DNA from: Marsupella aquatica
Lineage: Eukaryota; Plantae; Marchantiophyta
Direction of reading: 5' to 3'
DNA: 64,000 bases
Assembly (NCBI GenBank): GCA_973895155.1
Contig: OZ316895.1
Coordinates: 8,482,184 to 8,546,183, forward strand
Below the pieces are notes generated by a model. It was not told where the DNA came from, made no database searches, and worked only from the letters and a program-made list of their open reading frames with translations. Below are positions 5,379-59,916 of the stretch, piece by piece. A program made the position numbers and the translations under genes. Position 1 is the first letter of the stretch. Each line of letters starts with the position of its first letter.

Positions 5379-6385
5379 ATCTTACACCTCTTCAGCAGGC
5401 CCAACCCTAAACCCTCCTTAGTAGGGCTGAGGCCCAGACCTTCACCCTCCTTCATAACGCTGGGGCAGTTTGCTTTAGGGCCTCCCGTCAGGTTCAGCTT
5501 CGTGACTCTTTTATGCGGTTTATTCCAGAGCTTTCCCAGGCCTTTCAGTTCTCCCCTCAATAGCCTGGTGTTAGCCTTCACTGCCCTTTGTAGGTTACTT
5601 TTTTATCGTTGTTATTTCTTTGGCTTTTGGTTGGGATCCCTTTTTTCTTCCCTTCATGGGTTGTTTTGTCTTTGGTATGTTGGGTTGTTTTGCCTTTCGG
5701 ATCATGTATCCAGGCATGTATCCAGGTTAGGCGTTTCCTGCCTTTGTGCTGTGATATGTACAGTTGTCTGAAATCTTGCTTTCACATCCAATTGTTTTGT
5801 TTGGCCTCTCCCTCAAATGAAACTTCAAAACCGATCATGACAATCACGCTCAGCTTCTTCTCGACAGCTGATCAACTTCTACAAGGAGGATGGCACTGCG
5901 TGCTAGCTTAGACTATGAGCCATCCACTCTACATGCAAATTGTCCAGTTCCTCCTTGTACGAGATTCGACGAGGTCCTTGTCACAAAAAAGTTCAGAAGG
6001 ATTTCAAGCTCGAAACCGATGATTTATGCCTCACTCATGAGCGCACATCTGAGCGCTTTGCATGTTGATCATACTCGAACAACAGGATTTGTAACAGGTA
6101 GCTCAACGATACCCCGCGACCAATTTGAAACCGCTCTGAATTTCATTTCCAGTTGATGTTAAGATTGGTGACAGCCTTCATATATCCACGAGGGTTGATA
6201 CCACTGATGATCGGAAATGCTGCCAAAGCTCGATCTTCGGTCCCCCACCACCTGAGTACGATCATTGCTTTACGCGTGAAATAGTTCCATTCAAGTGAAG
6301 AATTTGGAGCGGCGGGATCTGGCTGGCCAGCTGCTCGACCGAGGAGCTAGATCGATTTGCTGTCTACGCTGCAGCTGCAGCAGCA

Positions 6386-9300: not shown

Positions 9301-9820
9301 AGATGTTTCACTCAACCTTCCTAGACCAATATTTGGCTGAAAGTCTTTCCAAGACTCGGATATTGCTAGGTGGTGGACATTGAGGCGAAGAGGGTCATAT
9401 AAGAGATTGCCGGTACCTGGTCAGTCAGGTTGTCCTTCTCCAAAGTAAGTGATGCTTGGCATCTTCAGGTAGGCAGTGGATGTTTTGTGAGAAAAACAGA
9501 ACGTTTCTTCTATGTTGCAGGTGAGAGGGAAGTTCTACTCGGAGGACAGGGTGTTTCATTGTGCTGGAGATAGAGTCGAGCACTTGTACTACGCTCACGT
9601 GGACGAGCATCAAAGTGTCGTGGTGTACAATGCCGAGAAGGACAACTTCTCTAGTTGGTCTTGCCTCCCTCCTCTAGGGGACGAATACGGAGGATGCATT
9701 GCCAGGAACTACCATTCCCTTGGTAGCTTCGTTCCCAGAACAGATGCCACCCCTTGCAAACCAAAAGAAGCTACCGCCATCAGCAGTTTGCAGGCCCTCC
9801 TATATCTTGAAAACTGCTAG
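6386..9820 (+). CDS. F-box protein with a probable kelch/FBA-like beta-propeller C-terminus; exons about 6386-6830, 7429-8183, 9521-9820 (an extra internal exon is possible)
   Basis: N-terminal F-box motif LDLTDDNISSILSLLPFSSL..KNVCKRW. Junction phases match: tcag|gtttga to ttcag|ga gives GGYS-G-LVC; caag|gtgaga to ttgcag|gtg is phase 0. Motifs YWVGNPITNDW, IYDSKEEKW, GYDIQKDEF and VVYNAEKDNF are typical of plant F-box-associated repeats. Confidence 0.8.
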
Positions 9821-10911
9821 GTTGAGGTCACATCTTGATATTGAACCACTACATAGCTCATAAATCCGAGGATTCCCGGTGCCCCTTGATATAAAAATAC
9901 TCTATGACCAAGGTTTTTAGCTTCTTTCATACAAATTCCGGATTCTCAAGCTTGAAGTTCTAATTTACCTGTGAACCAAGACATTTGGTCTTTGGGCTAT
10001 ACTAGCTTCCCATGACCATGATTCAGACATCACTAAGCCCGAAAGCTCAGTACCAGTACTTTGATCCGGCTCAATTTGACACTGCAGATCACTGCCAAAG
10101 ATTGGCTGCCACAATCGTTGCCGGATTCTCAAGACCATACTCATCACGGTCTCCACAGATTCACCTCCACACATTTCCATTAGATGATGTTGATTCTGGA
10201 AAGTAGCATAACGGAATCAGATATGTTGGTCATATTAGACCTACAAAGCTCTGTCCCCGACACTCTATAGTTATATTGGACATCCTGTTGACAGCATGAC
10301 ATGTATACATAGACGGAGGATTAACACATTAGAATATCCCTCCACTGTGAAGATTTAGAGAGCTTTATCAATCCCTGTGTGTTTAGAACGAGGGAAATCA
10401 AAAGAAGACGAAGCTAGCCCCATAGTCGTAGAATCAGTCGATTCCTAGATCCCCGCCGCGAAGATAAGAGAGCTAAACAAGCGTTGTCTTTAGAACGAGA
10501 CGATGGAGTTCCTCCAGTTGATAGAATATTCCCACGGAGACGGATAGTGTAAGTATAGGCTATCAATTCACAAATTGGGGCTACACAGACATCAATTCAC
10601 CAATTAACAAATACACCCAGGTTGATAAAGTCTACACTCGTCGAACTGCTGTTGAGGATTGTCCTATTATGCACATGAAAAGATGAATAAGAGTAACAGG
10701 TAAAAACCATCCATCCAACGGCGTCCAGATGGTCTGGTACAGCATGAAAGGAATCTTCCATCCTTCTGTGGCCCCTTGCTCTTAGTTAATTTAGCATTGG
10801 ACTTTGAACTCACTGCCTGGCCACCTTCTTGTTGATCAGTGGAGTCTTCTACCTCGTGGATTCTGACTCAGTAACTTGATCCCCTTCAGAATGCCCAACA
10901 TAACTGCCCTG

Positions 10912-11110
10912 TCAGTACCACATCCTGCACTTCTACTTCAAACCATTTTAGTTTCTACATTGTGCACCTCGCTCATGACAATCTCAGGATTCCATTCTGG
11001 TTCCCTTCGGTTCAGTACCACATCCTGCACTTCTACTTCAAACCATTTTAATTTCTACATTGTGCAACTAGCTCATGACAATCTCAGGATTCCATTCTGG
11101 CTCCCTTGGG
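10912..11110. repeat. Tandem duplication, 100 bp x2
   Basis: tcagtaccacatcctgcacttctacttcaaaccatttta...gctcatgacaatctcaggattccattctgg at 10912 and 11012. Confidence 0.95.
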
Positions 11111-11803
11111 TTGTATTCTTCAATACTTATTCATCATCCACGCTCTTATGATCACGGGAGCCTGCAATGATTGCTTGGCTTACTCATGATCTGCACTCAA
11201 TATTCTTGGAGCAATCTGAAGGTAGTTCTTCTCAAATGAAATATTCTCCAATCTGACTCTTTCAATGAAATAACGCATTTCGATAGGTTTCCCTTCTACA
11301 CTTCAACACATAGCAAGCTCACCTGGTAAACAAACTCCTGAGTAAAATAAGTCTGCAAATCTTTCCTCCTCGCATACTACAATCCCTTCACTGGTTCTGC
11401 TTTTTATTACAGAACCGTGCATTCAAACTGAATTCGCAACCACCGTAATTTGCACCGTTGATGCATGGATGGATTTTTCTTTCACATCGGACCTAGCGTC
11501 TATTGGCTACCTGCAGCCCACATGAACTTTTCGTCAAAGTGATTCCCCAAATCCTCAGCAATGTGCATTGTCTGGTCACCGTTACACAAGAAATTAGACC
11601 GTCCAGTTGGCGTCAAACCCTATTTTCCTGCTCAAAACAATCCAAAAACTAACCACAAACGTGTCTCCAGACAGTACACATGGAAGTTGGGCATACAAGT
11701 CGGAAGGCCTACCACAAGCTTCATAATGTTGTTGACTTGAAAGTGAACTGGTCAGCGAACTGAATCCATAAGGTCTTGCATGCCTCTGTTGCAGTCAATC
11801 TAG

Positions 11804-14800
11804 TCAACCCTCATTGTCATCTCCTTCAGGGAGAAGATAGGACTCTATCTGCGACCTGCCAAATTAGACACCAGAAAGATACACATACCTAAGTTTGCAT
11901 CCAGAGAAAATCCCCGCTCTTTGAAAGAAAACAGACAGGCTAAGATCAATCCTCAAACAGGAGCTGAGAAATGAACACATGCAACTACTGCAGTAATATA
12001 CCCGATCTCTCAACGAAGAAACAAATCCAGCATGATAGATAAGCTATATTCTATATTGTAACAATCTGCATAAGGCACCGTCAGACAAACCTCATCCACT
12101 TCTGTTGAGTTGCATAATTTGCGGTGCCCCTCTCTTTCATGATTTTTGGAAGCAGTTCATATCGCCCAGAAGTATTATTTTCATTTTCGGGTATAATCTG
12201 AAAGCAGCAACTGGGGCAACAAGTACTTTTAAACTCCAAAAACTCATTCAAGACATTTCCATTGATTTTGGATTTTGGATTCACGTTGATTCGCGTATGG
12301 TCTGCAGGATTGATGTTCGCTCGAGCATCCGAAAGATCTTTCCTGGTGACAGGTGCACAACATATTGGGCATAATATATCCATGTTGAGATCTGAATTTG
12401 ACTGGCTGCTAGTGTCAGTTTTACAAGCTTGTGGATTCCTCCGCCGTCGGTTGGGAGGTTGAAGAACATCATTGAAGCTGAAGGATTTCAATTTTGCTGC
12501 TGTTCGTACAATGGCGTGTTCGCGGGACGGGTTCTCCTCCTGGAGATGATTCACCAGCGATGTCAGCAATGCACAGAGAAGCCAATGGCAACAAATAATA
12601 GGGAAAGAACAACTGACGTAGCTCAAAAGTAGGGTACCAGGTACCTGGAGGAGAGTGATGAACGAGTGAGCCAAGTTGTTCAAACTGCTTTGTGAAGCAG
12701 CCATTGTAGTGAGACCTTTGATGAAAACAGTTTTAAATCTGGAGGACATTTGGATAGCCCCAAAATATTAGTTGTAACAAAACTAAAACGTGAAATTTTG
12801 CATGCCTACGATCCAGAGTCGACGAAGGCATCACCGAAATCAATGGAACTGCAAAGACACACTAACCGTCATAATTTCATCAATGGTCGACGGGGAATGC
12901 AAAGGTGGGGGCAGGTCAACCGAAGTTATTTCCAATCAGATTTAAAAAGAGCCAAGCTCCGGCATTAAAAAGAGCCAAGCTCCGGCTATCAAGGAAAGCA
13001 TTTAGACGTCTCAGCAATTTGTGCAGCTTAAGCACCGATCCCGATCCGCTCCGCCCTATACAGACCTAGTCCTTGTAGAGCGGAGCCCGCTCTGAAAGTT
13101 AGGCACTTGACCGATGAGCCACCAGGCCCTCCTGGGTTAGGCTACCGTCTAACAACACACAGAAGAAACAAACATAGCAGAAAACCCGCTGGATTGGATC
13201 AAGGCCCTCCTTTCCAAAATGTAGACGCATCAAGGCCCCATGAACAAGAAAATGCAGTGCTAGCCTACCACAGCACAATTACAGAAACTGCATGAAGTAA
13301 TGAGGGTCAAAGAGAAGCTCTCGAATGCAAACTACAATAGAGGAGTGATCACTGATTGCCCATTGACCATGCCGACTTGCGACACCAGAACAAACTTTTT
13401 CATCTGGTTTCAAAATCACTCTTGAGAACTTACTTTGAAAAGTAGCAAAATAGTGCCAACTCTCTCGCGACACAATCTCGCAAGGGTAGTGCCACTGGTA
13501 CAGGCCATCTTGCGTCCAGATATTGAATGTCTGCAGGTAACGAGTACCCTCGACCCTGCGGAAAGGGATCGCATTGAAAGAACTCAGAAACTCTGAAAAA
13601 CGCTAATCTAAAACGTCCCGTCCCGAGCCCCACAATCTAAGCTAAAATGCCTACTTGACAAATTCACAACACGTTTGCTCATCCGTCAAATACTAGAGAA
13701 ATTGTTCGAAAGTCCAGAGAAATTGTTTGAAGTCATCTTGAAATGGACAAGATCCAAATTAATACAATGAAATGAGCAGGAATGTTGTAGGGGTCTGCAC
13801 AGATACGAAAATTTATCTTATAGTCCAGTACAATCGTTGCATGACAAATTACCTTTGTGGTGGCCGCAATCACACGGGCTGCAATTCGTGTCGTACAAAG
13901 GCCTAGAACTACTTTCGTGTAGCCTTCCTCTTGAGCTACCTGCAAAAGAGCAACTCTGGTCAGTAATTTAGAATATGCAGATGCAATAAGTGACCAGAAG
14001 AAATGTTTCTCTGACAGGGTGGCAACAAAGCCACAGACAATGGCTATGAAGGACCCGTAATAGCACTGGGGCATGGACATCCAGAAATTACTTTGCTTTG
14101 CTCCAGAGGAGAAGAGAAAAAAAATTGACACCGAGACAGACAGATCATATATTCATTGAAACGATACTGTCAATGAGCTGGTGAAATTACTGAATGACCA
14201 TGAATTTGCAGACTATTCACCTTCTGTATTGCATGCATTCGCAAGTATTCAAGAAGATCTTCCTTTCCAGTTGCGTCATTAAGTCCTTGAAACACTTTCA
14301 AGAGCTTCTGCCCAGCATCTTCCACCGCCTCTTGCCCTCCATTTACATCACTCGTAACAGTATTATCAGATGCTCTACTGTCATGGTTGTTGTCCTTGTC
14401 AAATATGCACTGCGTTTGGACAACATGTAATGAAATTCCATCTTCTCCTCCACCTACAAACATGCTACTTATCTCGTTGACACCATTGTCCGCATCAGCT
14501 GGAGCAAGTTGTAAAACTGTCCGCTCATCAACGAAGACAACACCAAGACCAAATACGCTAAGCCCGCGATCCTTGGCTGCACCTGCATTGCTTTGAGCCT
14601 TCGACCGAATCTCCTTCAAGAGTTCAAGTGCAGCCCTGAAATGACATTAGAAGCACAAATGTGGATGAGGGCCAAAATTCATGACATGGTTGCCAAAGAA
14701 AGGTTGAACTTCATGAGGCACAGTCCCTATCAAGAGAAAAAATTTGCACCGGTGTGTAGCACGTCAGGAGCTGATATCGCTAAATAATTGTCAGTCCTGA

Positions 14801-15848: not shown

Positions 15849-16131
15849 TTGGACCTTCCTAACTAAGGTTAGTAAACTCACGGTTAACAGTCTTTCCAAA
15901 GTGAAAGAACAAAAGAATGAGGTAGTCTTATTCCACAGAAAGTTTGTTTCGCCCATCCCCATGGAACACGCTACCTCACTTTACACCTGAAATTCACACT
16001 AAGGGGCTACTTTTAAAAGGGCAATCCCCTTGTGAGTGAGTAGTGTTTTAGGGTTTAGGGGAGGGGGCGGGTTTAAACCCTAAACCCTCCCCCTCCCCAC
16101 CCAAATAGTTTTTCCAGGCACCCCGCCCAAT

Positions 16132-19100
16132 TGTAAAGTGCTGGCTTTTTGGCAGATGTGGTGCATTTTCCAAGACCTCTAACCCCAAGAACTACCCGCA
16201 ACCGATCATAAACCACTCGTTTACGTCCGTCCTCTTGCCGTATGGCAGCTATTCGGCTTGGAAACGCGATCCTCTCCTTTGATCCACACTTGCCGGACCG
16301 ATTCTTTCATTGGGCTTGTGAATTGTGCACAACTGAGACACCTAATTCCTCTTTAACTTCTTCAGGTATATTTGTATTCCGCCCCCGGAATGTACCCCTA
16401 CGGCTTAATTTCTTAAGCCGGCTGAAGGTCTTTTTCAGACGGACTCAACCCACACTTCACCGACTAAACACTCTCAATCCTCACTTTTCTCTCAGAGTTT
16501 GATTGGGCAGTCTCCAATCAAGACAATGCGATTGTACTTTGCTCAACAGTTCACCCTATCTGACTTAAATCGATCAAGCAACAGATATTGCAACACTCAA
16601 CTTCTTGGATGGCAAGAATTTGTGAACTAGGCAATGAGGCCAACTCAATTCAAACAATTGCTCAGAAATCCAAGGGAAGTGGTGGTTTACTGATACCCCG
16701 CGGTCTAGATTTAGCCGAGAGCTTCCTGTGCTCACAACAATACAGATTTTTCACTAAAGCCTTGACTAAGAAAACAACCCCTCCCAGCCACGCTGCCCGG
16801 GTTTTTATCCTTGCAGCGTGACTGAAAGAAGCGCAGAAAGCCTACCCCAGCAATCCTGACCTGCCACCATGATAATCCTTTTTATTTTACAAAAACAAAA
16901 CTAATCTGCCTAAGCCGGAAACCCGATGGATCTGGACCTCTAACACAATCGAACTATTCAAGCCGTCAGAGCGCTACTTGCCCTGTCCACATCCTACAAC
17001 GGCCGCGCTCTCCTGGCCCAAGCCCTTCTCCTTCCGCCACGTCCTCCTTCCAACTGACGACTGGCCCGCCTTAATTGTCAGATGACCGGTGGTAATCCTG
17101 AGCTGTCCGACTCTGTACCTTCCCCTGTACCCAGCTTCGGCTGACTCCCCTCGGCCACGTTAACTACGGCTTCGGGTTTGGCCTCGGCTTCATCCTCATC
17201 GGCAACGGCCTGGAGAGCCTTTGCCTTAACTTCCTCAATCCAAGTCTACTCTCCAATGCGCTCGGTCTCGATAACCCACGGCTTCACGTTCTGGGCGTCC
17301 ATAGAAGCAGTACCATCGTCTGAACCTGTCACCGCAGCTCCAAGTTGATCCGCAGTACTTACCTCTACCACAGCTGCCTTCAGGGCCATAGTACCGCAAA
17401 TGTGAGCGGCCATGCTCTCGACTTCCTCCGGAGTGGCTTTAAGGGGCTTAACTTTATTATCGCCCGGCCCCATGAACGTCTTTGCCAAATCTGCCACCAA
17501 CTGCATGGCTTTGCCCCCAGTCACGCTTGACAACAGTGAGCTCGGCTTCCGCTTCGGCTTCACTGTATTTATGTGTACCATACTACTGACGGGAAGCCTT
17601 TCAGTTGGTGACCCATATCCCGCTTCAGCATACTTCTTCAATTTCTCCATTTGATTGTCGGCACGCCTCTGCAACCCGATCATCTTATCCTTGGCCTCCT
17701 CCAACTCCTGAGATACGTCTTCAACTTCATCGTTAAGCCGTAGTATCTCAGCCTTGGCCGCCTTCAGCTCCTCATTTAAAATCTGCACGATCTCCAACTC
17801 TTGCTTATCTACGGCTGCCTTCAAGGAGTTATTGATGGTTTCCAGCTTCGTGACCTCCTCTTTCCATGCCATCTTTGTCTTCTCTATATCATCCTGAAGC
17901 TCCTTGCGTATTTGCTGGGCTCGGCTTAGGTGATCATTGGCCATTGTACTCAGGGCGTCCTCATGTTTCTCCCGCATGGCATCCAACCGATCAAGTAGCT
18001 TTTCATGCTTCCCTTGGGCTGCGGCCAAGGCCTTCTTGCTCTGAGTGGTCTGGTCTTTAGCCGCCTACCTAAGCCTATTGACTTGCCGATTAAGACCCTG
18101 TACCTCCTCCTTTGCATCAGCTAACTCCAGCTGCACCTTTGTCAATTTCTCTTTAATGTGTTGGTTATCCAATTGGTACTTTTCCAATTGGTTGTTCGCC
18201 ATCTCTAATTCCTGCTGCTTAGCCAAGAGATCCTGCTATGCTTGTTGATTCACCCTTGATTTAGCCACCTCTGCTTCCATGCTGCGAAGCCGAGCGATCA
18301 CTTCCTCCTTCAATCGCTCCAATGTCATTGCCTCCTCCAGTCTCGTCTGATCAGCCACTTCTTTTCTAAGAAATGGCCCGGATTCCAACTCGTTGCCGAA
18401 GATTTCTAAGGCTAAGAGTCCACACATGTCTCCATATTCCTTAGCTCGATTCCTTGCATAGTTTGACCTCCCAGGTGATACTGGCATATGCCATCGGGGT
18501 CGTCTCTCCCAAGCCTCCTCCCTCAGCTGATCGAAGTCAGTGAGAGGTTCGGCCTGCTTCTCACTAAGCCATCTTATTTCTTCCGGCCAGTCTCCTCCTG
18601 GTAGCTAGCATTCCTGTTTTGCACTCCGGGCCCCCCATTCCTTAATCCTCTCTTGTAGCCCGGCTTCAGCTTCCTTCATCTTGTCAAATTCTAATGGCGT
18701 CACATCTGGTGGAGGAGATTATGGTGTTTTCTAGTCCTCCGGCTTGCCATAGAAGACTGCGGGAAGTCTTCTACAAAACCTTCCCATCATTCTAACTCCT
18801 GGCACCGGCCTCTCCCCGTGATCGACATAATCGTCATCGTAGTCATCCACATTAACCTGACTTCCTAGCATGTCGGCCTCTTCTTCAAAGCCCCCGATCT
18901 CTTCCTCCGAATATTGTTGGGCTGCTGCTGGTTGATTTTCCTCCACAAGTCCCTCCACTTGGGCTCTGTTAGAAGCTCTAAATACCGGCCTCTCCTGGCT
19001 TCAGCTTACCTCCTCATCTGTCTCCGAATCCATTCGCTCGTCATATTTCTTTCTCTCTTCGGTAGTCATCTTCCTCTCGACCAATTGGATGGCTGCATAT

Positions 19101-20650
19101 GGATTATTACGAGTAGGCCGGCGCAACGGATTTCTCACCACATCGTAGGTTACTACCTTTGGCTCCTTGATAGGGAAATGCTCCCGTTCTCGTGTTGCCT
19201 GTGTTGCCGACCTCTTCCCGTGGCATCATTTGCTTAGAGGCTCCTCGTCCTCCTCCACCTCCTCAAGTGGTGCAGTGATCGGCATCCGCTCCTGTATAGG
19301 CAACACCGGTGCAAAAGACTGGCTTCTTGCATATCGGCAAAGTAATTGCAGATGGTACCCTAGTCTGAATACTGCTCCTTCCCCAATGCTCTGCTTTTCT
19401 TCATTTAATGCCTTCTTCAACTGCATTAAAAGATAGCCATTGTAGTCTCGGCTTGAATCGATATTCTCCACCAAAAATACTTGGGCTTTGCCGATTTCTG
19501 CTCTCGGCAAGGTACAATGCAACGTGACTCTCAAGAAATCAATCAGCTGCCCTATATGTGGGTTGGTACATTAATTCCTGAAAAACCCATTCTTAGTGGA
19601 AGGCCCTGGAAATGACCTGAACTGGTCATCCGGCAACATCTTCCTCTGCTCCACCTTAGTCTTCCTTCCTGTTGGTAAAGCGAAGACGGCTTTGATAAAC
19701 GCAGGTGTTAGTTCGAACACCTTTCCATACAACAGCGTCGTGTTGGAAGAAGCCTCCCAGCATCCCACGAAGTCCAATAGATCCTCATCCAGTATGTCTA
19801 CCATCCTCCAAGACAACTTGACAAAGCCCTTCAACCCTGTGTCATTCATATATCCTGCATATTTATTATCCTGAATGGCACTGAAGACCTCATCCTCATC
19901 TCTTGCGAACTGTAATTGTAAATCGGCAGGTAACCTGTCCGCCCACCCTGTCATGGTTTTATCCTCTACAGCCCGATCTCTAACTGGCCCGGCCTCCATC
20001 TTGATTGGTCTCTCTGACCTAGTTCGCTTTGCTGGAGTTGCGGATGCCGAACTTCCATTGCGCTTCCTCTCTTCAACACCTGAATACTCCCCAAGAATAG
20101 CTTCCTTAGTCCACTTCGCACTATGACCCTTCAATTCCCAACGTGGCTGCCCTGCGTTCTTGATTGCCTCCCTAATCCCCACGACCTTATTCTCCTGAAT
20201 CAGCAATTCGTCAAGCTCCGCACTGGTGGGTGTCCACGAGAAATTTTCCAACACCTCCTCCGTATCTACAAATGCCGTTTTGTGAGTTCCCCACAATCGC
20301 GCAAGCTCCGCTCGTTCTCTAGCTGCGCGCTCCGACTCAACGTCTTCATATGTAGATATCAGCTGCCTTGCTTCTTCAAGCAAACAGCCCCAAAACTTCC
20401 CTGCCTGATTCACCGTGTTCATTCCACCGAATGCCAAGAACTTGCGCAATCTCCCAATCCACCACATGCACTTGACTGACAGTCGCTCCTCAATGTCGAG
20501 ACCGTGTACACGAGAATGCCAAATGGCAGAGTATTGGTCTCTTCACTCCGAAGCCGCCACTTAGGAGTCTTTGTGATCAAGCATGGATTTAGGTCATAAC
20601 TCAAAATCCCGCCGGATCTCAACCGTTGGATCCTTTCCCTTATCATCTAA
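16132..20650 (-). mobile_element. Degenerate retrotransposon-derived element with a long decayed accessory ORF (plant transposon/Athila ORF1-like domain plus long coiled coil); right end not located
   Basis: Collinear minus-strand ORF fragments 20467-19571, 19534-19226, 18958-18731, 18487-18236 and 18028-17246, separated by stops or frameshifts. Clear homology to the ORF at 22861-24513 (LH..PR.EI..AQV..VEN). Left end tentatively at tgtaaag (16132). Confidence 0.7.
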
Positions 20651-22323
20651 TACGTAGTAATCAGCATCGGTCTTTATTGTTACCTTATACTCTTTATCTA
20701 TCCTTATTTAGCCATTATTTTAGGCTTAATTATTACTTCGTGATCCTGGCAAGGCATCACAACAGACTTGCTCATTTGACTTTTGGAAAACCTTTGCATT
20801 TATTTGGAGAATTTTGGGATCTATGTTGGAGCTCAAAATCTGCTAACATGTTCTTTGATGTCCATTGTATTTTACCTGACAAAGTTGGAGATTTTTCTAA
20901 GACCGTGTGCTCTATTGCTGATGACTGTAAAATTGGTCACATTTTATAATCCTGTTGTCAGCGGAAGCATCACTTTTGTTTGTGAAGGACACCCCAAGTA
21001 ATTTGTGCATGAGCAACAACTTGCCAGTTAGGGGAAGGACTCTTCACTTGTGACACCCCGAGTAGTTTGTTTAAACTTGCCAGTTTGAGGAAGGAAATAT
21101 CAATTTTGTAAAAGGACACCCTATGTAATTTATGCATTGCAACGACTTACCACCTCATAAAAAATGGAAACTGGCTGCAAATGGTCTCAGCTTTGGAAAT
21201 TGATGGGGGCTTCTTCAGAGCAAATTTCCCAGTCCATCCAAGCCGAGCTTAGTATTCAAAGAGAACAAACCAATTCAAAAGAAGAGGGCAAATGAAAACT
21301 CTGAAAACTTGGGCAAACGAAAACTCAGAAAACCTAGACAGACGGAAAGTAGAGATAAAGGTTTCCACTGCAATAGAGGATGAGCTAATGGTTCACACCT
21401 AGTGCAACAGTGTGATGACTAATAGTGTCACAACGTCAGCCTTGGCCTTACTCGGGCTTCGGCTTAAATAGGCACATCCTTTGTCAGAATGAGGGTTCGG
21501 GCAGGGAGGGAGGCACGGAATGCACCCAACTTACATAAAATAGCGTTAAGTGCGCCTATCGTCATATACAGATACCTCCTAGGTATGATTTGTGTTCCGC
21601 CGCCGGAACGTACCTCAATCGATAGCAGGATCGACCCTGGCTTAAGGGCCTCTAAGACTTCGTATTGTCCGCCTTCGATCCGGATTTTGGTGGTATGGGT
21701 GCTCAACCCGGGCTCGCAACCACGTACACGCAAGCTGCACCCCGTGCACTACTTGGGTAGTGCGTTCGGCCAAGCGTTGGCACCTATACACGAGATTCAC
21801 ACACATACATATGCACAAGCATAAAATCTTGATTTATACAAAGGAAATAACAGGAAGGGATTTTACTCCATAAGAGACATATGCGTACACTTAGTTGACC
21901 CGAATGCTCTGGAGTGACCAGGTCCGAGGCCGAGGGTGTACACTACAATGGAGCCCGGCTCCGCACTCGCCCAGCGAGCTTAGTCTTACACCCTCCCCTT
22001 GGTACTCTTCCACTCCCAGAGGTCGGGGCTCCCCGCACATACCGCGGATGTCCAATACTAAGACTAAAAAAACCCCCCGCCTGCCTCTATCGAGGGGTGC
22101 ACTAAATACTAAGGGCCGAGGAACGGAGTGTCCTCCCGCCCAAAGATTTGCTGACTTAGGTCCTAACTAATCTGACTGTCAGGCCGAAAATGGTTGTGTC
22201 TTATTAGAAGATCCTAACCTACGCAGGTTGGACAGCATGGCGGTGCTGTTTTAACTAGGGCAGGTTCCTGTCCCCATAGTCTGATTTAGCTATTCCTAAC
22301 CCTATTCTATTCCTACTCCGTTG

Positions 22324-24957
22324 CTAATGCCTGGCACGCTTGCCAGAGCCGCCCGAGTGGGAGCAGTCATCCCGCTGCTTACGAAGTCTGTCGTTGTCCG
22401 CCTTCAGGAGCTGGACCTGGTCCAGTAGAGATTTGTTCTCTCGCTTCGCCGTGTCCGTCTCCTCCGCTGCCTCCTGGCATGCCTCCTCCAACTGTTGGGC
22501 GTCGCTCGTCAGCTTGCCCGCCAGCTGGTCCTACTTCTCGGCTTCGGTTTGGAGCCGTGCCACTTCGGCCTGTAGCGTGGCTATCTCCACAGTGTCCCAC
22601 TGGGCCCGTTCTTCGGCCTCCTCCAGGTCTTTCTGCTAGATGACAGTTTGATTCTTCAAACTGTCAATCTGGTTCCGGAGTCGTGCAATCTCGGCCTCGT
22701 TCCCAACTTTGGCCTATTCGGCTAGAACAGTAAGGGTGTACGCCTTTGCTAACAACTCATTGGCGGCTGCAACCTTGGGTCGTAGTTGCAGAAGCTCAGC
22801 CTCTTGAGCTGCAACTTCATTCTTTAAGTATACGGACTCCACCTGGTACCGCTCTATCCTCTAAAGGGCCTCTGACTGGGCCCGACCTGCCTCCACTACG
22901 GCAACCAACTCCTGATTGAAGAAACAGGCTACCTTCCGGGCCATGAACTCCCCGATATCCCGGGCAATTTGATGAGAGAAATCTCCCAGAAGCCCGTTTA
23001 GAAATGTACCCGGTACGAAGAGTTCCGGGTGGTCCAGGTTGTGCCTGTCCGGAGTTGGGCACGGGCAGACGTCAACACGCGCGGGGGCCAGGGCAGTGAC
23101 ATCCAGCCCTGGGGACGTAGTGTTGGAAGGGGTTGGAGTGTCCTCCTGCAGCAATGTCCGGTTCTCCGGAATAGCCACCGGTGGGTCTTTGGGAGACCCA
23201 GGCTCGAGTAAGGCCTCCGCTGTACCGACTTCTGTACTTGGCCCGGCCTGTTGGATCGCATCTACGGTTGCGATAACCGACCCATCCGGTACCTCCTCGG
23301 TTACGACTACAGCTACTTGTGGAGGTGGGGTGGGTGAAGCCTGCGTGTCCGCTGGACTTCGGGCCTCGGGTTGGGGCCGTCTCTCCAAGGCCGGGAAAAC
23401 CCACCTAGCTGGGACCAGCTTTGTAACGTTGACACGGGGAAGGGTTCGTCGATCAAACCGAGCGTACCACTCGAGAATGATCTCGATGTGGCTAGCGAAA
23501 TACGCCTTCCCGCCAATGTATAGCGTCTTCCTTCGCCGCTCCATCTCTTGGAATTTCTTAGCGAAGTACGACGCCCACTTCCTAGGTCGATAGTTCTCGA
23601 CCTGGATAACCTGGGCAGCGGAGATCTCCCCCCGGGGTTCCATCATGTGGAGGGCGTACCTTTGGAACTCCAGTCGCTCAGCTATCTCGGGGATGAGGCA
23701 GGTCCTCATCACGAACGCGTTGTCCACTGCTCCCTCTGAGGGAAAACTCGAGGATTGGTACTTGGCTCCCTTGCCCCCGGGAGCCCGTGATTCGACTCGA
23801 TGGTCACCTTCGGGTAACCCGAAGATCATCTTGAGCCATTCTTCCGTGAGGGACATATTCCTTCCCCGCAGCCGAGTATGTTGACGTGCGTCATCATAAT
23901 TCTTGACAAATTCCGTCATGTCCTCCCCGTAGTACCTACAAGTGTTCCAGGGGAGAGAGGCGAGGTGCTCGAATCCCTGAGTCTTCAGATACACTGCATG
24001 CTTGGGATGGAGGATGTTTTTATGCACGTTTTCCACCATGCGGTGCATTATCACCTTGGCCACGGCTATCGTGGCCAATGGTAACCCGGATGCAGCGACG
24101 GGTTCCTTCCTCTTCTTCCCCCGTGACTGGCTCGGGGAGGGTGACACCTCCCCATCCTCTCGATCGGGCATAGGTAGTGCTACTGCCGTTAGTATTGGGC
24201 CCAGGGCGGCCACAATCACCGTGGTGTCTGCTGGAGCCGCTCCTTGGGTCCGAGCATGGGGAGGGGACAATGTAGTGTCGGCCCCCTGAGTGTTTGCTCC
24301 TCTGGGCCGCCTGAGCAAGGATGGGGTAGCCTCGTCGTCGTCGCTAAGGTCCACAGTGTTGATGACGGAGCATACTTGTACTGGCGGGGCGATCGGCGGT
24401 GGGGGTTGGCTAGGCTGAGGCTGAGACTGAAGTTGAGCCTGAGCCTGAGTTGGTGCGGGTACTGGTATGGGGTCGACTGGGCCGGCGCCGGCGGTTGAGG
24501 GTCTAGTTCCCATGAAGCTCTGCAGGTGCTAGTAGAAGTTCTCCGAAGCAAGTGCAGACGGCCTTGTCGAACGAGTAGTGCTAGACTCGCTGTTGATGAT
24601 AGCCCGAACCTGAGCGGGGATGTGGTCGAAGTGATGTCGTTGCAAGTCGATCGTACCCGGGATATTGAAGACCTCGTCCGGAAGCCAAAGCAATGCTTCC
24701 CAGAAACCGATATATTTGTCTCCGTTGAAGAAGTACCCAGATACCTCTGCTGGTCGGTAAAGCTCGCTCTGAGACGGGTAGTCAAAGTTAAGGATATAGT
24801 GGTGTCGTCCTGCTAGGCGGATGGCTCTCTCGTACTCGCGTTCGATTTCATATCGGCGCGGGTTGGCGTGTTTCAATGAGTCGGCCAAGTGTCTTCTGGT
24901 AGATAGGAACTGCGTCCAGAATCGAATGGCCGAACTGGAGAGGATCGTGTGCGACAT
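22324..24957 (-). pseudogene. Element-encoded protein of about 877 aa (N-terminal globular region, Pro/Gln linker, plant-transposon-protein-like domain, C-terminal coiled coil) interrupted by in-frame TAG stops
   Basis: ORFs 24957-24529 and 24513-22861 are in the same frame. Reading continues through TAGs at about 22714, 22636 and 22531 as a heptad-rich coiled coil to ...GKRARH* at 22324. The TAG at 24529 is CGG in the copy near 59066. Confidence 0.8.
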
Positions 24958-25057
24958 TCAGAGGAGATAGCAGTGGCGACTAAGAGCGAACGAGAGAGCT
25001 GGGGTCGAAGCTGGCGCGTGGACTGATGGACTGGTGCACTACAAAGGGTCGGCTCCC

Positions 25058-25065
25058 TTTTTATA
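25058..25065 (-). promoter_or_regulatory. TATA box about 100 bp upstream of the element ORF ATG
   Basis: ggTATAAAAAggg on the minus strand, conserved in the second copy at 59595-59602. Confidence 0.6.
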
Positions 25066-25809
25066 CCTTGAGGGCTTGTCGATCCCCCGACGTCTCCTCG
25101 TTGCCTATAGGCTGAACCGTTCACGCTTGTAGTGTACCGGCCACTCCGCCGGTCTGAGTCAGCGCGTGTCAATGGCCGCTTCCCTAAGTTCGTTATACGG
25201 ACCCGAGGGAGGGGCCCCTCCGCGCTCGCAACCCGGGCGTGCGAATGGCGACACGCCGCCAGTCCAAACATGAACTCCCCTTATTGACTAATGATTTCCT
25301 ACTCATAATGGTTACCTAAATACTGTCATTATGCTAATAATAGCGGCCTAAGATACCCCTAACGCGCGTGCTAAGCGCGGTCCAGACTGAATTACTCATT
25401 ACTCGCCGTACCGGCGGCGTCACAAATAGTCATTCAGATCTTGATTTCCTCACAGCCATTTTCTTTCCCTCTCAAACCTGCCTTCCGATGAAAAGGAGAT
25501 TATCATAAATTTTTGGTCATCATTCGCGAGAGCCTGCTTGCATGTGCGCACATTCACAAGATCTGATGGTTCTCCTTGATCTTCAAAAGATCTAACTGTT
25601 GATATTGATTAGGCAGGTATAATCTAACACAAACTCCTTTCTTGATTGGGGAGAAGTAGCCAATCTCCCTACTTTTCCAAGACACGAGAAAAACAACAGT
25701 ATCCCTTGCACTTCTCCCTGAGGGTGGATTGCCCTGGCCCATGGAAGTTAGAGGGGCTTCCACTAAGGTCACATTTCTGGACCTCATGAGAGATGATCTA
25801 CACTGTTCA

Positions 25810-26000
25810 CCAAAATTAGTTTGACTAACACTAATTCAAGAGCATCAATTTTCAGGGTTTAATTAGGAATTATTGTTAGTCACACTAATTTGATGTTAAC
25901 ACTATTTCCACACACATGAATTAGTTTTACTGCAGTCTCAAGAGTGGAACAATAGAAGGGAAAAAACTATTTTGAAAATTTCACAAGAATAGGTGTTATT
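25810..26000 (+). repeat. AT-rich dispersed repeat family, also present at 44265-44775
   Basis: Shared motifs ttagt.....cacactaatttga, tttcagggt and aataga.gggaaaaaa.tat.ttgaaaa.t.cacaagaat between the two loci. Confidence 0.7.
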
Positions 26001-26539
26001 TTGGACTCAATATCATCCATTTTTCAGTTGCAATTTAGACTAAAGTGCAGAAAAACTATTCTGAAAAGCTGACAAAAATCAATGTTACCTGGATTCAAAT
26101 CACTTTTACCAAAATTAGTGTCGATTGCTGAGAAACTATGGGTTTAGGTAAGGCTCCAGGGAACCTTAAACAAACAGTTGTGGACACTTGTGCTCTACCA
26201 CTTGACCACCCTTGGATGCGATGTGCATCAAACTGTATGATGCGGTGAGAAAAATTACTTTCTAGTTTAGGGACCTGTTCATTCATCTTCAGTTTAACAA
26301 GTTAATTAATTCAAATTCCATCTTTATGTACTACTAAATACTAAGCCATGAGTTCCCAGACTTTAGAAATGCTCAATTTTTCAACCTTTGTATTCCACTC
26401 TCAAACATAATACTTAGATCAAGCTTAACTCTATTCCTTATATGAAAAAGCTTTCAAGTTTGAAGTGACATAAGGTTGTTTTTGGCCAACAGTTCTCTAA
26501 CTCAAGAATTCCCAATCTCTTCACAGGTCAGTGGCAGTC

Positions 26540-30120: not shown

Positions 30121-31190
30121 TTAGTCTGGTGACAATAATGCTCTGGGCCAGTACGGGTGAACAGAGTAACCTGTCTTCCAACTATTTAGAGCGATCACCT
30201 TGTGAACCGCGAGCAAACTGATCACCATTACTAAGGGCAGAAGAATCTGCTGAGCAGCTTTTGAACTGATTGTGTGCAAAAAATGGGTGGCAAAGGCTAG
30301 CAAGAGACCTACCAAAGTGTATAGACACGATATGATAACTCCCTCGGCCCCGAGTTGCGTCGACCTTCCTTGAACAAAGTACACAAGCTGTTCGAGATTC
30401 TCTGAATCTCTGACTAGGAAAGGTATTCCCTGGATGACGCTTAACATGCCCCCTGCCATGATAAAAAAGTAAATCAGCAGTATATTGAGGACCCAGAACT
30501 TAGGATCGTGCCATAATGTGTCCTTGGCCAACAATCTCCGGATGACAAACGGTAAAGCCACGAGCAATCCTCCCACTAAAAGTATTATCTGCTGCTTGGT
30601 CAAGTCCGGCGGGGTTTCAAGTGGTCCCACTCTCTGTCTAGTCTTAGCCCAAGTGGTCCCACTCTCTGTCTAGTCTTAGCCTCAACGAATCCAACCATTC
30701 CCTCTTCGTTCCAATCCATCGATTCTGAATCTTCCAGACTCCCATTCCCGGACGGCAAGTATTTGATGTGTGGCAGCGTTGTCACGCGAAAAGCGTCGAA
30801 ACTTCGCTTCGACTCTACAAAATTGAGGTCAGCGAAAAAGACTTGTTGTCCGACCATCATGGGATTGTTCCTCAGGAACGCTGTCGCCAGCACACCAAAC
30901 TCTGCCCGGTTAGCCACCAAGTTCAGGTCCGCATTATCTTTCAGGTGCGCCGCATCGAAGAAGATGAAAAACGAGTAAGGCCGGCGCTCCCGTCCCGGGA
31001 TGGCGAACTTCTCGACGAGCTCATTGTTAAGGTGAATCACGCCATCGTCGGCCTGGGCTTCCATCTTCAGTAGCTCGTCGACCCTCGTTCCGCTGTTTGA
31101 TTGCCCCGCTTGGACACCACCCGACCATTCCGCAGGGAACAAAATCACCACAGCGAGCAGCTGCAACACGCGCAAAGTAAGCGTCTCCAT
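30121..31190 (-). pseudogene. OST3: Oligosaccharyltransferase subunit OST3/OST6 homologue, intronless, frameshifted by a 32-bp tandem duplication
   Basis: Signal peptide, DDGVIHLN..RPYSFFIFFDA..L.L...EF, FF.DL.F.ES..SF..F.V..LPHI, four TM segments, QLGAEG and W.TGY..H.YWP. Removing 32 bp gives an uninterrupted 345-aa ORF. Confidence 0.9.
30618..30681. repeat. Perfect 32-bp tandem duplication inside OST3
   Basis: caagtggtcccactctctgtctagtcttagcc at 30618-30649 and 30650-30681. Confidence 0.97.
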
Positions 31191-31307
31191 TATTAATCCA
31201 AAATCAATCAAACCCTGCCTACGTTCACGAGTGAGGAAACTCATCAGGCGTTTAACGGGTCCCCTGCCATTTCAAGCTCCGCCGCTCTATTAACTTATCT
31301 CCAGCCA

Positions 31308-32451: not shown

Positions 32452-35400
32452 CTACTAGCGTGAGGGCGGTACCGTGACTGTCCTTTCGTTGAATATAGCA
32501 AACATCACTTGGTACAGTTCGTTGTGGGCCAAAACGTGGGATTTAGCTCGAGTTTTGAGTGGCGATCATTGTCCATAAAGTACGAAATGCGTGCTTTAGC
32601 AGTTGTGTCTCGTGAGGGCTACTATTTGTCCAAAATGATTTATTTAGCTTCAGTTTTGAGGGGCCATTGTGGTCCCAAACTAGGGATTTAGCTTTTAGTT
32701 TTGAGTGGCTATAATTATTTATTTACTATTGATTTTTGAAAATAGGTTGTGAGGGGCTGTTAGTGTCCAAAAGCAGGAATTTAGTCCAAGTTTTGAGGGA
32801 CTATTATTGTTTTGAAGGAGGTGCTTTAGTTCAAGTTATGAGGTGCTATTGTTGTCCACAAGGCTCTGGTAATAAGACATTAAATAAGACATTTTAAGGC
32901 ATAATGGATTTACTAGTTTTGTAAAAGCAATGAGAAATTGCATATTGAACCTATCCAGATTTTGACTGTGCGTTTTAGGAAAACCTCACTGAGAATTACA
33001 AAGAGAATTAAGAAAAGAGATTCATTTTAATTAAGAGACTCACCCTGCCCCGATTTGCACCCTCAACTTCATTTCTGCCCCCAAAGTCTCAGTCCACTCT
33101 AGACCATAGGTGTTGGGCGAGTAGCTTTTGATCGCAATAATGTAGTTAACTGTGTAAGAATTGTTTTCGATGTTTGAAAATACAATCATAGCCCTTCAAA
33201 TGTGGGAACAAGCCAGATTTCACTTCACATGGAATTGGAGGCACAATCTAGAAAACCATATGCAACAAATAAACTTTGGGTAAGATATAGTAGTCATCAA
33301 AGTCTCCAATAGGCTTGCAGTGAAAGCTTGGAAAAATAAAGATTTTTTTGTTGGGAAGGAATAAAAATGATGATCTCTATAAAATGAATAGTAAACAAAA
33401 GCAAGGGGTAATGAGTGGAGACATTAAGTAAATGACAAAACAGAAAAGTACAATCAAAGAAGTTCAATTTGATTCCTAACTTTCTATTCATGCAAAAAGT
33501 GACCAATGGAGAAAATAATGACACTCTAAGTCTAGATTCAAGTACAACAAAATATTCTATGTTTTGTTCAAAGAGATCTCCACAGACTAATTCACATGTA
33601 AATATAATGTTCAACTTCTCATTCGAGGAGTGAATCCAGGTCTGTAGTGTAGGTCAATTCAAATACTTTATTTATTGCTGTTAGATAGAAACGTTTGCAG
33701 CTATTACAACCAAGTGAGAGCTCCAAAATAAATGCTAAATTCATTGAGATTTTATAATTTATTTGTGTTTGTAAATTTGTAATTTATCTATTCATGTCAT
33801 ATTTCAGGCTCAGCCCTGAACAAAAGTCGCCATGAAGTTTGGGAGAAAGTGTAAGTTGAATGTTTCCTTCAGAGGAAACCGAAAAAATGAATTTATAATG
33901 GATGGAAAATCGAAAAAGAAAACCTTAACATGCACTTGAGGTCATCACATATTTTTCGATCATTAGAGCTCATGTATCCCAACGAAAGATTCCATATAAA
34001 CTTCTAGGGAAGACGACCGCGTCCCGACCGTAGAAATTACGAATCCACGGCTAATATTCAAATCCACGATTCATAATTGCGCACAGTGAGCGAAGTTTGA
34101 AATGGGAGAGACTCAGAAACGTCTTGTATGCCGAGGCTCCGAAGCTCTGACTGCCTGACGTTCTTATATCCCGAGTGACTGTGTCACTGCGTGTCTTGCG
34201 CAGCCGGTGGACCGGCTTCAAGAGGTAGGCCCGGTCAACAGTCATGAGGGCGGGGTTTGCAACACATTGTCAGTTCGGTGGTAACCGGTAACCGACGATG
34301 CAAGCCAAGGTGAGGAGGACAGGTGGTAACCAATAACCGGACAGCCCGCGGCATTGGAATTTGGAAATGTATCGCGAAACCGACAGACGCGGGAAGAAAC
34401 TGAGAAAGACGCCGTATGCAATTGGAAAGAAATGCGACCGTTCGAAACGGAGGCTGACACCTCACACTTCGGTTCCAAATGGAGCTTGTTGGTGGCCTAC
34501 ACGTGAAGACTTTCCCGAGTTTTGGTTTTATATTTTTGAGAGGGTTTTTTATTTCTTTCCACAATACGCAGCTTGATTTGAGGAGGGTTTATGTAGTGCC
34601 CCATCAATCTTGGCTTGTGTAACGCAAAATATAAAAGTTTTATCATGTAAAACAAAAAATGACCTAAAATAACTGGCCTTTTAATTTAGTTTCTTTCTAT
34701 ACACAATAGTGCATGACCTTAACTTCAGGGATTTCCCCCTTTTTGGTTTCTTTCCAAAAACCCCTTCCAACCTGGGCTAAATCCATATTTTGGGGGACAT
34801 TGTATCACGCAATGTCCTCTAATCAGGATGTTACCCTATTCTTCGAGTACAGTTAGTGACTGTGTTAGATAGAGTCCTTGCAGGGAGGAAGGATTTTCTT
34901 TCAGTAAATAAATAAACGCGTAAGGGTTTAACCTCCAAAATTTGCAAATTGGTCGCTGATTACGGACCCCACTAGAGGTCCCTTCCAAAATTCCTGGCAC
35001 CACATCGTGCCACGTCAACAACAACCGCAACAAACAAGACTCGTCAGTTTTGTGAATCAAACTTATAGTTTTCATTCGTGTTTGTATCAATTTAGGTGTA
35101 AATTTTGGGACGCCGTGCCATAAAAAGAAAAGTAAAAACATTGGAAATGCAAAGAGCAAGACGGTTAAAACTGTCACTACTTATGTAACCGTTTTAGTTA
35201 CATTTTCAATTTTAAAACTTAAATTCAAAGATTTATAAAAAGTATTTTTCATATAATAAATAATGACTAATAACTAACTTGATAACTTCTTTGTTAAAAC
35301 GCAACTCCCGATATGTAAGGACCTCTCGTATTGTACAGCCATTAATGCTCGGAAGAGCACATAGAAACCCAGGATTGGGGAGGAGGAATGGCTGGAATCT

Positions 35401-36015: not shown

Positions 36016-37232
36016 TGGCCCATTTGCAAATTTTGGAGATTGAACCCTTAATATGCCTTTATTCTATATTATTTATTTATTTACTGAAACAAATTCCCTC
36101 CTCGGCTCCTCCTACAATTGAGCTTCAATTCAGGAACTCATCGTAAGTGACAGCCCTATAGGGTGCGTTTGACAGGCCCGCTGTGTCATCGGCGGGGCAA
36201 GCGGGACGGGAAAGAAAGACAAGCTGTGAGTATTCCCTTTTCCTTCCGTCCCTTCTCCAAAGGAGCGGAGGGAGAGGAGAGCAGAGAGCAGAGGAGAGCA
36301 GAGGAGAGCAGAGAGCAAAGACGAGGTGCAGAGCTCGTGCACGACCAAACCATGGTGCTGCCTTCCTGGCGAGACGACGAGAGCGAGCTCGCGCTCGCTC
36401 GGTGTGCCCTCTGCTCGGGCGCCGGGTGAGGAGGCAGCAGCAGAGGAGCAGCGCAATAACAGCATTATCAGATTCTTTCTGTAGTCGAAGCACTGTCGAT
36501 GATGGTGGTGTGGCTCCAGCAGCAGCATCAACAGGAACAACGGAGGAACAACGGAGGAGCAGCAAGCAAGCTCAAGGAAGATGGAGGGAGTAAGATCTGA
36601 AGAATTGCTGGCTTCTTTCTTCAATCTCAGCGGCACCTCGAGAATGCCCCTCGTTGACGGTCGCCGGTTCCTCCAACAGCAGCAGCAGCAACATTTGCCG
36701 GAGCAGCAGCAGAAGAAGAGCAGGAGCTGCGGATACGAGAAAGAAGAGGCATACGTGCAGGACGAAGAAGGAAAAGAAGGAGCACCAGAAGAGGAGGAAA
36801 GGAATCTGTTCGAAAGAGGAGAGAGTAACATTGTCAGGGGTGGAGAGATTGGAATTGGTTGTGTGCCAGACAGTAGTCGTAGTAGTAGTGGTAGTACAAG
36901 GAGGAGGGGGAGGGGGAGGAGGGAAGGTAACACTGGTGGTTGACAGAGAAGGGAGATTTATGAAGTGGACGGCAGAAGCCGATTTGGTGGTAGGATTGGC
37001 AGTCGGTAGTGGTAAGAGAAAGCTTGGCGTTGGATTAGGAATTGGAAGGAGGAAGATCATCAAGAACAGCGGTATAGATTTAGGAGAGCATCACCTGAAG
37101 CGTTGCGGCGTGTTTTTCCTGAAAAACTCCTCTGTTTTGAGTTTGAATTGGAGCCTGGACACGCGCAACAGCATCTTACTGGATCGAGACAAGGCCATGA
37201 AGCGCTCGAATGTGTTCAATTTGCTTCTCCAG

Positions 37233-58065: not shown

Positions 58066-58927
58066 TTCTACTCTACTGGACCACCTGACGGCAAGGAGGC
58101 AAAATCCAAAAACATTTTTCTTCCGTTAGTGGCACTTTTCTCATCGAAACGGCAAGGCAAGAGTGTTTTTGCTTTGTAATCGGCAATTTTTATTTGGGGC
58201 ATTTTTGGCTTAGGTTTAGGGCGTTTTTCATGTGTATACACACAGGGTGTATACACACCCTCCCGGCCCCGATACCCCCCCTTCACGCCCGCTCCCGCAT
58301 ACAGGCAGCCGCGGCCGTGGCCTATAGCGCCGGCCGGCGCGTTTGCTGCCGTCGCGGCCACCTCACTCGCCCCACCGGTCGCCTCTCCCCGCCTCGCTAT
58401 GCGCCCGCGCCCTCATCCTGCCCACTGCCGCTTTGTGGCTCCGGTGCCTGCCTCACAAGTTGCGGCTGCGACTTAGTTTTTACACCCCGGCCCGGCCGTA
58501 CGCCCTCTATGCCCTTGTAATACTGTCTGGCCCATCTTTAGGGTTTAGCACCCCCTTTAGGCCCGGTTTTTAAACATTTTTTTCAGGTTTCTTATTGGAT
58601 GTGCCGCTTCCCGGGACCTGCCGCCCTCTGAATTAACCGCTTCGACACGGGGAACGGCCCCCTGTGAGACCTGTCGCACAATTCGGGGAATATTCTGAAA
58701 AAATAGAGAGCTATTTTTTGGCATTTAGTCAAAGATTCTGAGGTCCAAACAATAACTTTTTTGGATCTTTTTTGGCAAGGACGTAGCCATTGAAGCTAGC
58801 AACGCGGTGCACCAATCAATTTGCATTTCCGATGACAGGTGGTACTTGGCACTTTTGTTATTCCCCCAGGTGGTCAAAATGGGACAAAAATTTTGAATTT
58901 TACCCACTCCAACCAAAGACGGATCTC

Positions 58928-59916
58928 ACCTGTAGGGGCAGGGCGACTGGTGGCGGGGGTTGGCTAAGCTGAGGCGGAGCTTGAGCCTGAGCTGGTGCTG
59001 GTGTGGGCACGGCTGGGCTGGCACCGGTGGTCGATGGAGTGTTTGCCATGAAATTTTGTAGGTGCCGGTAGAGGTTTTACGACGCAAGTGTAGACGCCCT
59101 TGTAGATCGGGTAGCGCTGGACTCGCTGTTGATGATGTCCCAGACCCGAGCGGGGATGTGGTCAAAGTGGTGCCACTGTAAGTCGATTGTGCCCGGGATA
59201 TTGAAGACCTTGTTCAGGAGCCGAAGCAATGCCTCCCATAAGCCAATATATTTGCCTCCGTCGAAGAAGTACCCTGATATTTCTTGGGGTTGGTAAAGCT
59301 CGCTCTGGGATGGGTAATCAAAGTTAAGGAGATAGTGATGGCGGCCTGCTAGTAGGCGGATGGCTCTCTTGTACTCGCATTCGATCTTGTATCATTGCGG
59401 GTTGGCGTGTTTCAACGAGTCGACCAAGTGCCCTCTGATAGACAGGAACTACGTCCAAAATCGTATGGCCGAACTGGAAAGGATCGTGTGCGACATTTAG
59501 AGGAGATGGAAGGCGACTAAGGATAAGCAAGAGAACTGGGGTCAAAGTTGGCGCGTGGGTTGAAGAACTGGTGCACTGCAAAGGATCGGCCCCCTTTTTA
59601 TACCCTGAGAGCTCGTCGATCGCTTGTCGCGTCCTTGTTGCTTATAGGTCGTCAGTGGTCGCCTCCCAAAATTTGTTATACGGACCCGAGGGGAAAGAGT
59701 GGAGGGCCCATTACACGCTCACAACCTGGGTGTGCAAATGGCGATCTGCCGCCAGCCCAAACACAAACGCCCCTTATTGACTAATGATTTCCTACTCATA
59801 ATGGCTACCTAAATACTGTCGTTATGCTAATAATTACGGCCTAAGATATCCCTAACGCGCGTGCTAAGCGTCTTTAGGCCAAATCACTCATTACCCACCG
59901 TACCGGCGGCGTCACA
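58928..59916 (-). mobile_element. Truncated diverged copy of the 21426-25424 element (terminus, TATA, ATG at 59496 and about 190 codons)
   Basis: Collinear with about 24377-25424, with the same end ccgtaccggcggcgtcaca and many substitutions. Confidence 0.92.

Follow-up and report, generated by a model that had tools for sequence, protein, structure and literature searches.

The question raised by this locus is what kind of mobile element holds a complete protein gene of about 877 codons between TG...CA ends, and what such a protein may do. The locus lies in a 64,000-nucleotide stretch of the liverwort Marsupella aquatica (GenBank assembly GCA_973895155.1, contig OZ316895.1, positions 8,482,184 to 8,546,183 of the forward strand), hereafter the window, and the element in question is a unit of about 4 kb on its minus strand, referred to as the 4-kb unit (Table 1). 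We read it as an integrase-type, high-copy insertion, likely a solo long terminal repeat (LTR), probably of a Ty3/gypsy element, with a VANC/PMD-like protein that is likely to act against silencing. For this reading as a whole we see about even chances, and its first part, that the unit is a solo LTR, is by itself quite probable.

Ends, repeat edges and predicted promoter of the unit

Read on the minus strand, the unit starts with TGTGACGCCG and finishes with CGTTGTGACA, and an exact AATAG pair abuts it on either side. These TG...CA termini and the perfect 5-bp target-site duplication (TSD) had been reported in a preliminary description of the locus and were confirmed by sequence inspection. 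Taken alone, the TSD match is weak evidence, as three exact TSD pairs against 0.65 expected were found among 664 TGTnAC...GTnACA pairs lying 0.2-15 kb apart in the window. The ends were judged to be real because the repeat boundary in public contigs independently falls at 25424. The insertion site itself (21415-21433 / 25425-25433) is a short palindrome with 6-bp arms and a 3-base centre, one base off the TSD centre.

The repeat boundary was seen in public sequencing runs, six of the seven listed containing part of the stretch. Contigs of four runs (X1-X4) were mapped; these represent two studies only, carry the flanks of this very insertion and may include the source of the window. In all four, contig depth was 1e4-5e5 across the element bins and 12-145 in the flank bins (94 and 145 in the flanks of X1), and at 25395-25399 it exceeded the flank ~560- to 2,000-fold. 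The right (5') end was resolved to the base, with a depth in X1 of 62,306 immediately within 25424 and of 54 ten bases beyond, and the left edge of the high-copy repeat fell in the 147-bp bin containing 21426. Depths summed over contigs do not equal copy numbers, and the values were taken only as pointing to hundreds to thousands of copies. The contigs departing at 25424 (16, 8, 17 and 15 in X1-X4) agreed with their consensus at only 0.38-0.47, so they have many different flanks, as interspersed copies do. Indeed, ends, TSD and repeat edge together uphold the earlier idea of an integrase-type insertion.

The bins of the open reading frame (ORF) were not shallower than the terminal bins, and there was no rise in depth at the ends. 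Contigs fitting two places numbered 0-2 of 4,954-12,222 mapped per run, and the largest joint, among 15 of the 38 listed, skipped 506 bp. Because of the even depth, the few two-place contigs and the small joints, the ORF was considered a fixed part of the unit.

Self-comparison revealed no direct repeat >12 bp inside the unit, and nothing in common between its first and last 400 bp. The termini match as inverted repeats in 7 of 10 bases, and in 3 of the next ten. The Pfam scan gave neither gag/pol nor a transposase domain, leaving two long open ORF pieces without Pfam match, and no convincing primer-binding site (PBS) was present within or adjoining the unit; thus the absence of internal direct repeat, PBS and gag/pol claimed earlier holds. 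There were no Rfam matches in window positions 16000-26500.

The single ancestral ORF behind a conserved TATA box was likewise borne out, as the frame runs from 24957 to 22327 and the TATAAA at 25065 recurs in a second copy of the unit. The preliminary description had also pointed to a TATA-like motif near 21835. The motif is there (TATAAA at 21838), although we do not favour it as a promoter; given its place in a T/GT-rich tract past the stop codon, it is more likely a 3'-end signal.

Of plant LTR elements, 93.4% show TG..CA termini with a 5-bp TSD (PMC6317226). LTR elements have short att-like ends such as those of the unit (PMC4029996), and LTRs up to ~5 kb as well as PMD, TRP28 and Athila extra ORFs are described as typical of non-chromovirus gypsy elements (PMC6317226). 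The solo LTR is favoured because the termini with their TSD, the att-like ends and the 4-kb length all fit it.

The accessory protein and its predicted fold

The copy at hand is dead and unable to make the full protein, with TAG in frame at codons 143, 699, 748, 774 and 809. Three of these stops coincide with variants where >99% of depth reads another letter (among the 40 of 577 variant rows listed), and since the contigs read other letters there, these three are private to this copy. All five are TAG, with no TAA or TGA, which suggests context-biased decay, e.g., by methyl-C deamination. Thus, of the earlier picture of the unit as a gene-carrying expression cassette, the ORF as a fixed part of a high-copy unit stood; expression of solo copies is only a possibility, this copy having five stops. 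Comparison with the second copy gave dN (nonsynonymous divergence) 0.088 and dS (synonymous divergence) 0.54, a ratio of 0.16 (137 codon pairs, three stop-containing pairs excluded; Fisher p 3e-11), by which the ORF is a formerly functional gene that was under purifying selection.

A profile built from the core of the protein and from a neighbouring paralogue retrieved 59 relatives at E<=0.001 among 1.84 billion proteins. The organism was named for 11 of the 30 clusters looked up, and it was always the liverwort Calypogeia fissa. One relative, P0064, is a stop-free protein of 906 amino acids (aa), collinear from the start through a terminal GKRAR at 28% identity (E 3e-93). Word-based protein searches with the core returned nothing, and a further one returned two proteins, both already known; fused forms at 1587-4530 aa were not met in the word-based search, which is weak evidence. 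No family locus was located in viral contigs, metagenome contigs or prokaryote genomes, one viral-contig search reporting a single relative without locus.

According to the family alignment, the protein consists of an N-terminal domain (~110 aa), a P/S/T/Q-rich linker, a basic core (~200 aa), a second linker and an acidic coiled coil. Residues 291-520, which hold the core, have 36 K/R against 25 D/E. The basic GKRAR motif stands at the terminus after the coiled coil, here as in P0064, and is a possible nuclear signal.

The core was modelled from 48 sequences with a predicted local distance difference test score (pLDDT) of 86.6 and a predicted template modelling score (pTM) of 0.82; an attempt with two sequences reached only pLDDT 33. 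The first Foldseek match of the model was VANC21 bound to its target DNA (9lnj; E 0.027, probability 0.97, template modelling score (TM) 0.50), the runner-up having E 1.5 and TM 0.13 and every other row TM <=0.16. In a Foldseek-independent structure search (VIA), 9lnk was the sole chain with Z>=2 of 48,161 (Z 7.8, 218 residues aligned, root-mean-square deviation (rmsd) 4.4), and realignment of the model to 9lnj gave Z 8.0 (212 aligned, rmsd 4.3). A viral structure library gave no real match. Three points led us to trust the VANC21 match: it has no competitor, it extends over the entire domain, and it falls on an accessory protein of a plant transposon. Judging from the model, the core is very probably a remote homologue of the VANC DUF1985/PMD domain. 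The function, left open in the preliminary description, may accordingly be narrowed by the predicted fold, which favours the anti-silencing and DNA-binding option among those offered.

The likeness to VANC21 of Arabidopsis VANDAL21 (9LNJ/9LNK) lies in the predicted core fold, over ~215 residues, and in the setting, as either is an accessory protein that a transposon carries and that has a coiled coil along with low-complexity stretches. VANC acts by binding to short motifs, and frees the elements of its own family of silencing marks (PMC5735166, PMC10398659). However, VANC sits on a Mutator-like DNA transposon and is described as dicot-specific (PMC13547354), whereas the 4-kb unit has a 5-bp TSD, TG..CA ends and no transposase; the two proteins share 9-11% identity with no profile match, tandem target arrays are missing here, and the liverwort protein has an extra N-terminal domain. 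The VANC DUF1985 domain in turn is reported to resemble structurally the PMD-C domain of the host proteins MAIN, MAIL1 and MAIL2 (PMC5418596; 10.1101/2024.09.27.615353; PMC13547354). By analogy, PMD-C and the core likely belong to the same fold superfamily, although MAIN, MAIL1 and MAIL2 are angiosperm host genes and a PF10536 match is absent here.

The second comparison is with the extra ORFs of non-chromovirus gypsy elements, namely Ogre PMD (PF10536), Retand TRP28 (PF04195, with SMC-like coils), Athila ORF1 (PF03078) and Transposase_32 (PF20167). Like these, the gene is a retroelement accessory gene with a conserved core and a coiled coil, and like Grande gene23 it has its own, here predicted, promoter. 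PMD-A is also encoded by gypsy elements (PMC5418596). Plant extra ORFs are described as internal (PMC7264820, PMC11963269, PMC6317226) and belong to seed-plant elements, whereas this one stands wholly within the TG..CA repeat and its named relatives are from a liverwort only. In titles and abstract openings of the openly available literature searched, we found no precedent for an ORF wholly inside a plant LTR. No Pfam family, with PMD, TRP28, Athila ORF1 and Transposase_32 included, reached its cut-off; Transposase_32 matched weakly in 2 of 48 members (best 16.9 bits against a cut-off of 45, in P0038). Searches of PDB sequences with the core and N-domain profiles gave coiled-coil noise or nothing. 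By prediction the protein would work like VANC/PMD; it belongs to neither VANC nor any Pfam-defined extra-ORF family.

In animals, the sag gene of mouse mammary tumour virus (MMTV) is a complete protein gene inside a retroviral LTR, placed in U3 and coding for a membrane protein. The two genes are alike in being wholly in the LTR, hence kept by solo LTRs. They differ in that the present one belongs to a plant element, has a much longer ORF, encodes an unrelated protein and likely lies downstream of the main TATA box.

Mechanism and competing explanations

Solo LTRs arise through LTR-LTR recombination, normally losing coding capacity. Quite probably, full elements of this family would bear the 4-kb unit at both ends of gag-pol, and recombination between two such LTRs would have left the present copy. 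What is said below of transcript ends, binding and function is inferred; anatomy, conservation and predicted fold were computed here. The TATA box at 25065 would serve as the LTR promoter, and the ORF, lying just past the start site, would be the first thing transcribed, that is, in R/U5 rather than U3. With transcripts finishing near 21800, every intact LTR would yield an mRNA of its own. On entering the nucleus, the protein would oligomerise via its coiled coil, bind motifs of its own LTR and keep or make LTRs unsilenced in trans, family-wide; granted homology to VANC/PMD, the prospects of this are roughly balanced. In its widest form, a liverwort lineage would have put in its LTR a gene for a sequence-specific anti-silencing protein with the VANC/PMD fold, so that each intact LTR is a promoter-gene-terminator cassette for de-silencing in trans, a possibility we hold only tentatively. 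By analogy, the lineage is probably a Ty3/gypsy family of liverworts, from which Tat-related gypsy elements are known (PMC13468544, PMC12885004).

Several observations weigh against this reading. Firstly, the fold match is moderate, with a Foldseek E >0.001 at the low identity given above, and a Z of 7-8 is a common best score in the structure search according to its own guidance. The core profile did not match VANC21 (9LNJ) among PDB sequences at E<=10, and no DUF1985 or PMD match in Pfam was obtained for queries P0001 and P0003, the other members being judged on 25 of the 54 weak families listed. Secondly, no reverse transcriptase was linked to the unit, the gypsy assignment being by analogy only. 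No full-length element and no junction with a PBS or polypurine tract (PPT) was seen, the loose ends at the 5' end having been examined; those loose ends showed no dominant shared neighbour or PPT, which is a weak result from only 8-17 contigs per run. A dominant PPT would be missing if there were more solo than full copies, and its absence also fits a unit without internal region. A pyrimidine-rich start of the loose-end consensus in X2 and X4 could hint at a PPT and was set aside, as X1 and X3 were without it. Thirdly, the non-coding DNA of the unit contains no tandem array and no k-mers above shuffle maxima, such as targets of the VANC type might form. YAGTATT, a partial VANC21-like motif, occurs there three times and was treated as chance; the full YAGTATTAY occurs 0 times.

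The missing arrays bear on the alternative that survives best, in which the solo-LTR anatomy is the same and the protein does other work, for instance in nuclear import, in handling genomic RNA or in anchoring the integration complex on chromatin. A common fold does not establish function, and the accessory proteins of Retand and Grande are nuclear with unknown roles (PMC7264820). Targeting could explain why family genes stand side by side here and, in C. fissa, have accession numbers that nearly adjoin. Against this alternative, the sole structural neighbour is a DNA-bound anti-silencing factor, and the related host PMD-C proteins counter Polycomb silencing (10.1101/2024.09.27.615353). We regard another job of the protein as fairly unlikely.

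Ginger-type DNA elements use an integrase-like (DDE) transposase, and the 4-kb unit could be a complete non-autonomous element moved in trans by an enzyme of this kind. The lack of a PBS/PPT junction or of a link to gag-pol would fit, VANC itself is cargo of a DNA transposon, and a near-identical gene pair of C. fissa has a mirrored accession order, unlike a direct repeat. However, the termini form no real terminal inverted repeat, the ends and TSD match the prevailing pattern of plant LTR elements (PMC6317226), and the order of promoter, leader, ORF and 3' signal fits an LTR. Such an element is, in our judgement, unlikely. Mutator elements make a 9-bp TSD, as opposed to the 5 bp found here, which counts further against a DNA element.

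The ORF could instead be an extra ORF of the usual internal kind, with the present copy formed by deletion or recombination from part of an LTR, internal sequence and part of another LTR. This would agree with all described plant extra ORFs (PMC7264820, PMC11963269, PMC6317226) and is very improbable, given the unrelated terminal 400 bp, a depth at the ends not above that of the ORF, a largest skip of 506 bp among the joints listed and the end-TATA-ORF order kept in the second copy.

If the solo LTR with an anti-silencing protein is the right reading, this protein would be the first of its kind from an LTR retrotransposon; sequence-specific anti-silencing has been shown for VANDAL DNA transposons (PMC5735166). 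What the extra ORFs of plant retrotransposons do is called open (PMC7264820, PMC11963269), and so, fully and within an angiosperm frame, is the origin of PMD in gypsy elements or host genes (PMC5418596), VANC being proposed to derive from a captured MAIN (PMC13547354). Both the function of extra ORFs and the origin of PMD/VANC become testable with an unannotated family of the VANC fold on mobile elements of liverworts. On the above reading, the fold would have been on retroelements before angiosperms arose, which would speak for PMD/VANC having originated on retrotransposons. A gene within the LTR would also outlast solo-LTR formation. Units of this kind get annotated as host genes, as seen in the 11 C. 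fissa clusters labelled 'unnamed protein product'.

The neighbouring paralogue and other features of the window

The paralogue of the accessory gene (16354-20422 with its 3' motif) sits 1 kb from the 4-kb unit. A non-coding motif shared by the two scored 51 against a shuffle maximum of 40, which hints that the layout of the unit may be old. Its pattern has two matches in the window, being built from these two, and its folding energy stays within the range of shuffled sequences (z -0.9 to -1.7). Two matches of the motif in viral contigs were rejected as chance, the contigs being unrelated. The ends of the paralogue's element were not found; four TG..CA/TSD pairs against 2.0 expected were seen, none convincing.

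Table 1. Coordinates of the features in the window, with the basis of each assignment.
Feature	Position	Strand	Basis or remark
Likely solo LTR, 3,999-bp TG...CA unit	21426..25424	-	Ends; high-copy over whole length in 4/4 runs; sharp edge at 25424
TSD AATAG, left copy	21421..21425	+	Sequence inspection
TSD AATAG, right copy	25425..25429	+	Sequence inspection
TATAAA box, predicted promoter	25060..25065	-	108 bp upstream of ATG, followed by CT-rich leader; kept in second copy
Accessory gene of 877 codons, pseudogene here	22324..24957	-	Five in-frame TAG, no frameshift; dN/dS 0.16; intact collinear relative P0064
Conserved N-terminal domain, ~110 aa	24619..24945	-	Family alignment; matches nothing known
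Conserved basic core, ~200 aa, predicted VANC21/PMD-like fold	23464..24057	-	Profile, model, structure searches
Acidic predicted coiled coil, residues ~701-865	22363..22857	-	Coiled-coil Pfam matches weak, under cut-off
Second TATAAA, within T/GT-rich tract	21833..21838	-	Putative polyadenylation signal (favoured) or second promoter
Non-coding motif, ~42 bp, small TTCCG/CGGAA stem	21573..21614	-	~150 bp from 3' end of unit; common to paralogous unit
Second copy of the unit, truncated, 76% identical	58918..59916	-	Shares 5' end, TATA and the initial ~190 codons
Decayed paralogous gene, ~1,115 codons, many stops	17078..20422	-	Same N-domain, core 28% identical, coiled coil
Paralogue's version of 3' motif	16354..16396	-	Alignment; ~700 bp past its stop

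Family members cluster in C. fissa too, where CAM6086213 and CAM6086215, of different subfamilies, are two accessions apart on one contig. The near-identical C. fissa proteins CAM6101869/70 and CAM6101879/80, broken at the same place, were considered as an LTR pair and rejected, as their accession order is mirrored, on another contig.

The second copy of the unit is cut off at 58918 beside an LTR-like, copia-like sequence ending in CAACA (56300-58917, plus strand), with what we take from its motif to be a tRNA-Met-type PBS at 57473. Host genes lie among 6299-8291, 30121-31271, 39688-41697 and 46947-48257, comprising F-box/beta-propeller and OST3/OST6 genes according to Pfam and two long frames without Pfam match, which presumably correspond to TPX2-like and BTB At3g05675-like genes. 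Repeats of a dispersed AT-rich family, with units of ~86 bp, were found at 25799-25936 and 44282-44723, and inverted arms at 34885-34952 and 36019-36103 may delimit an element of ~1.2 kb resembling a miniature inverted-repeat transposable element.

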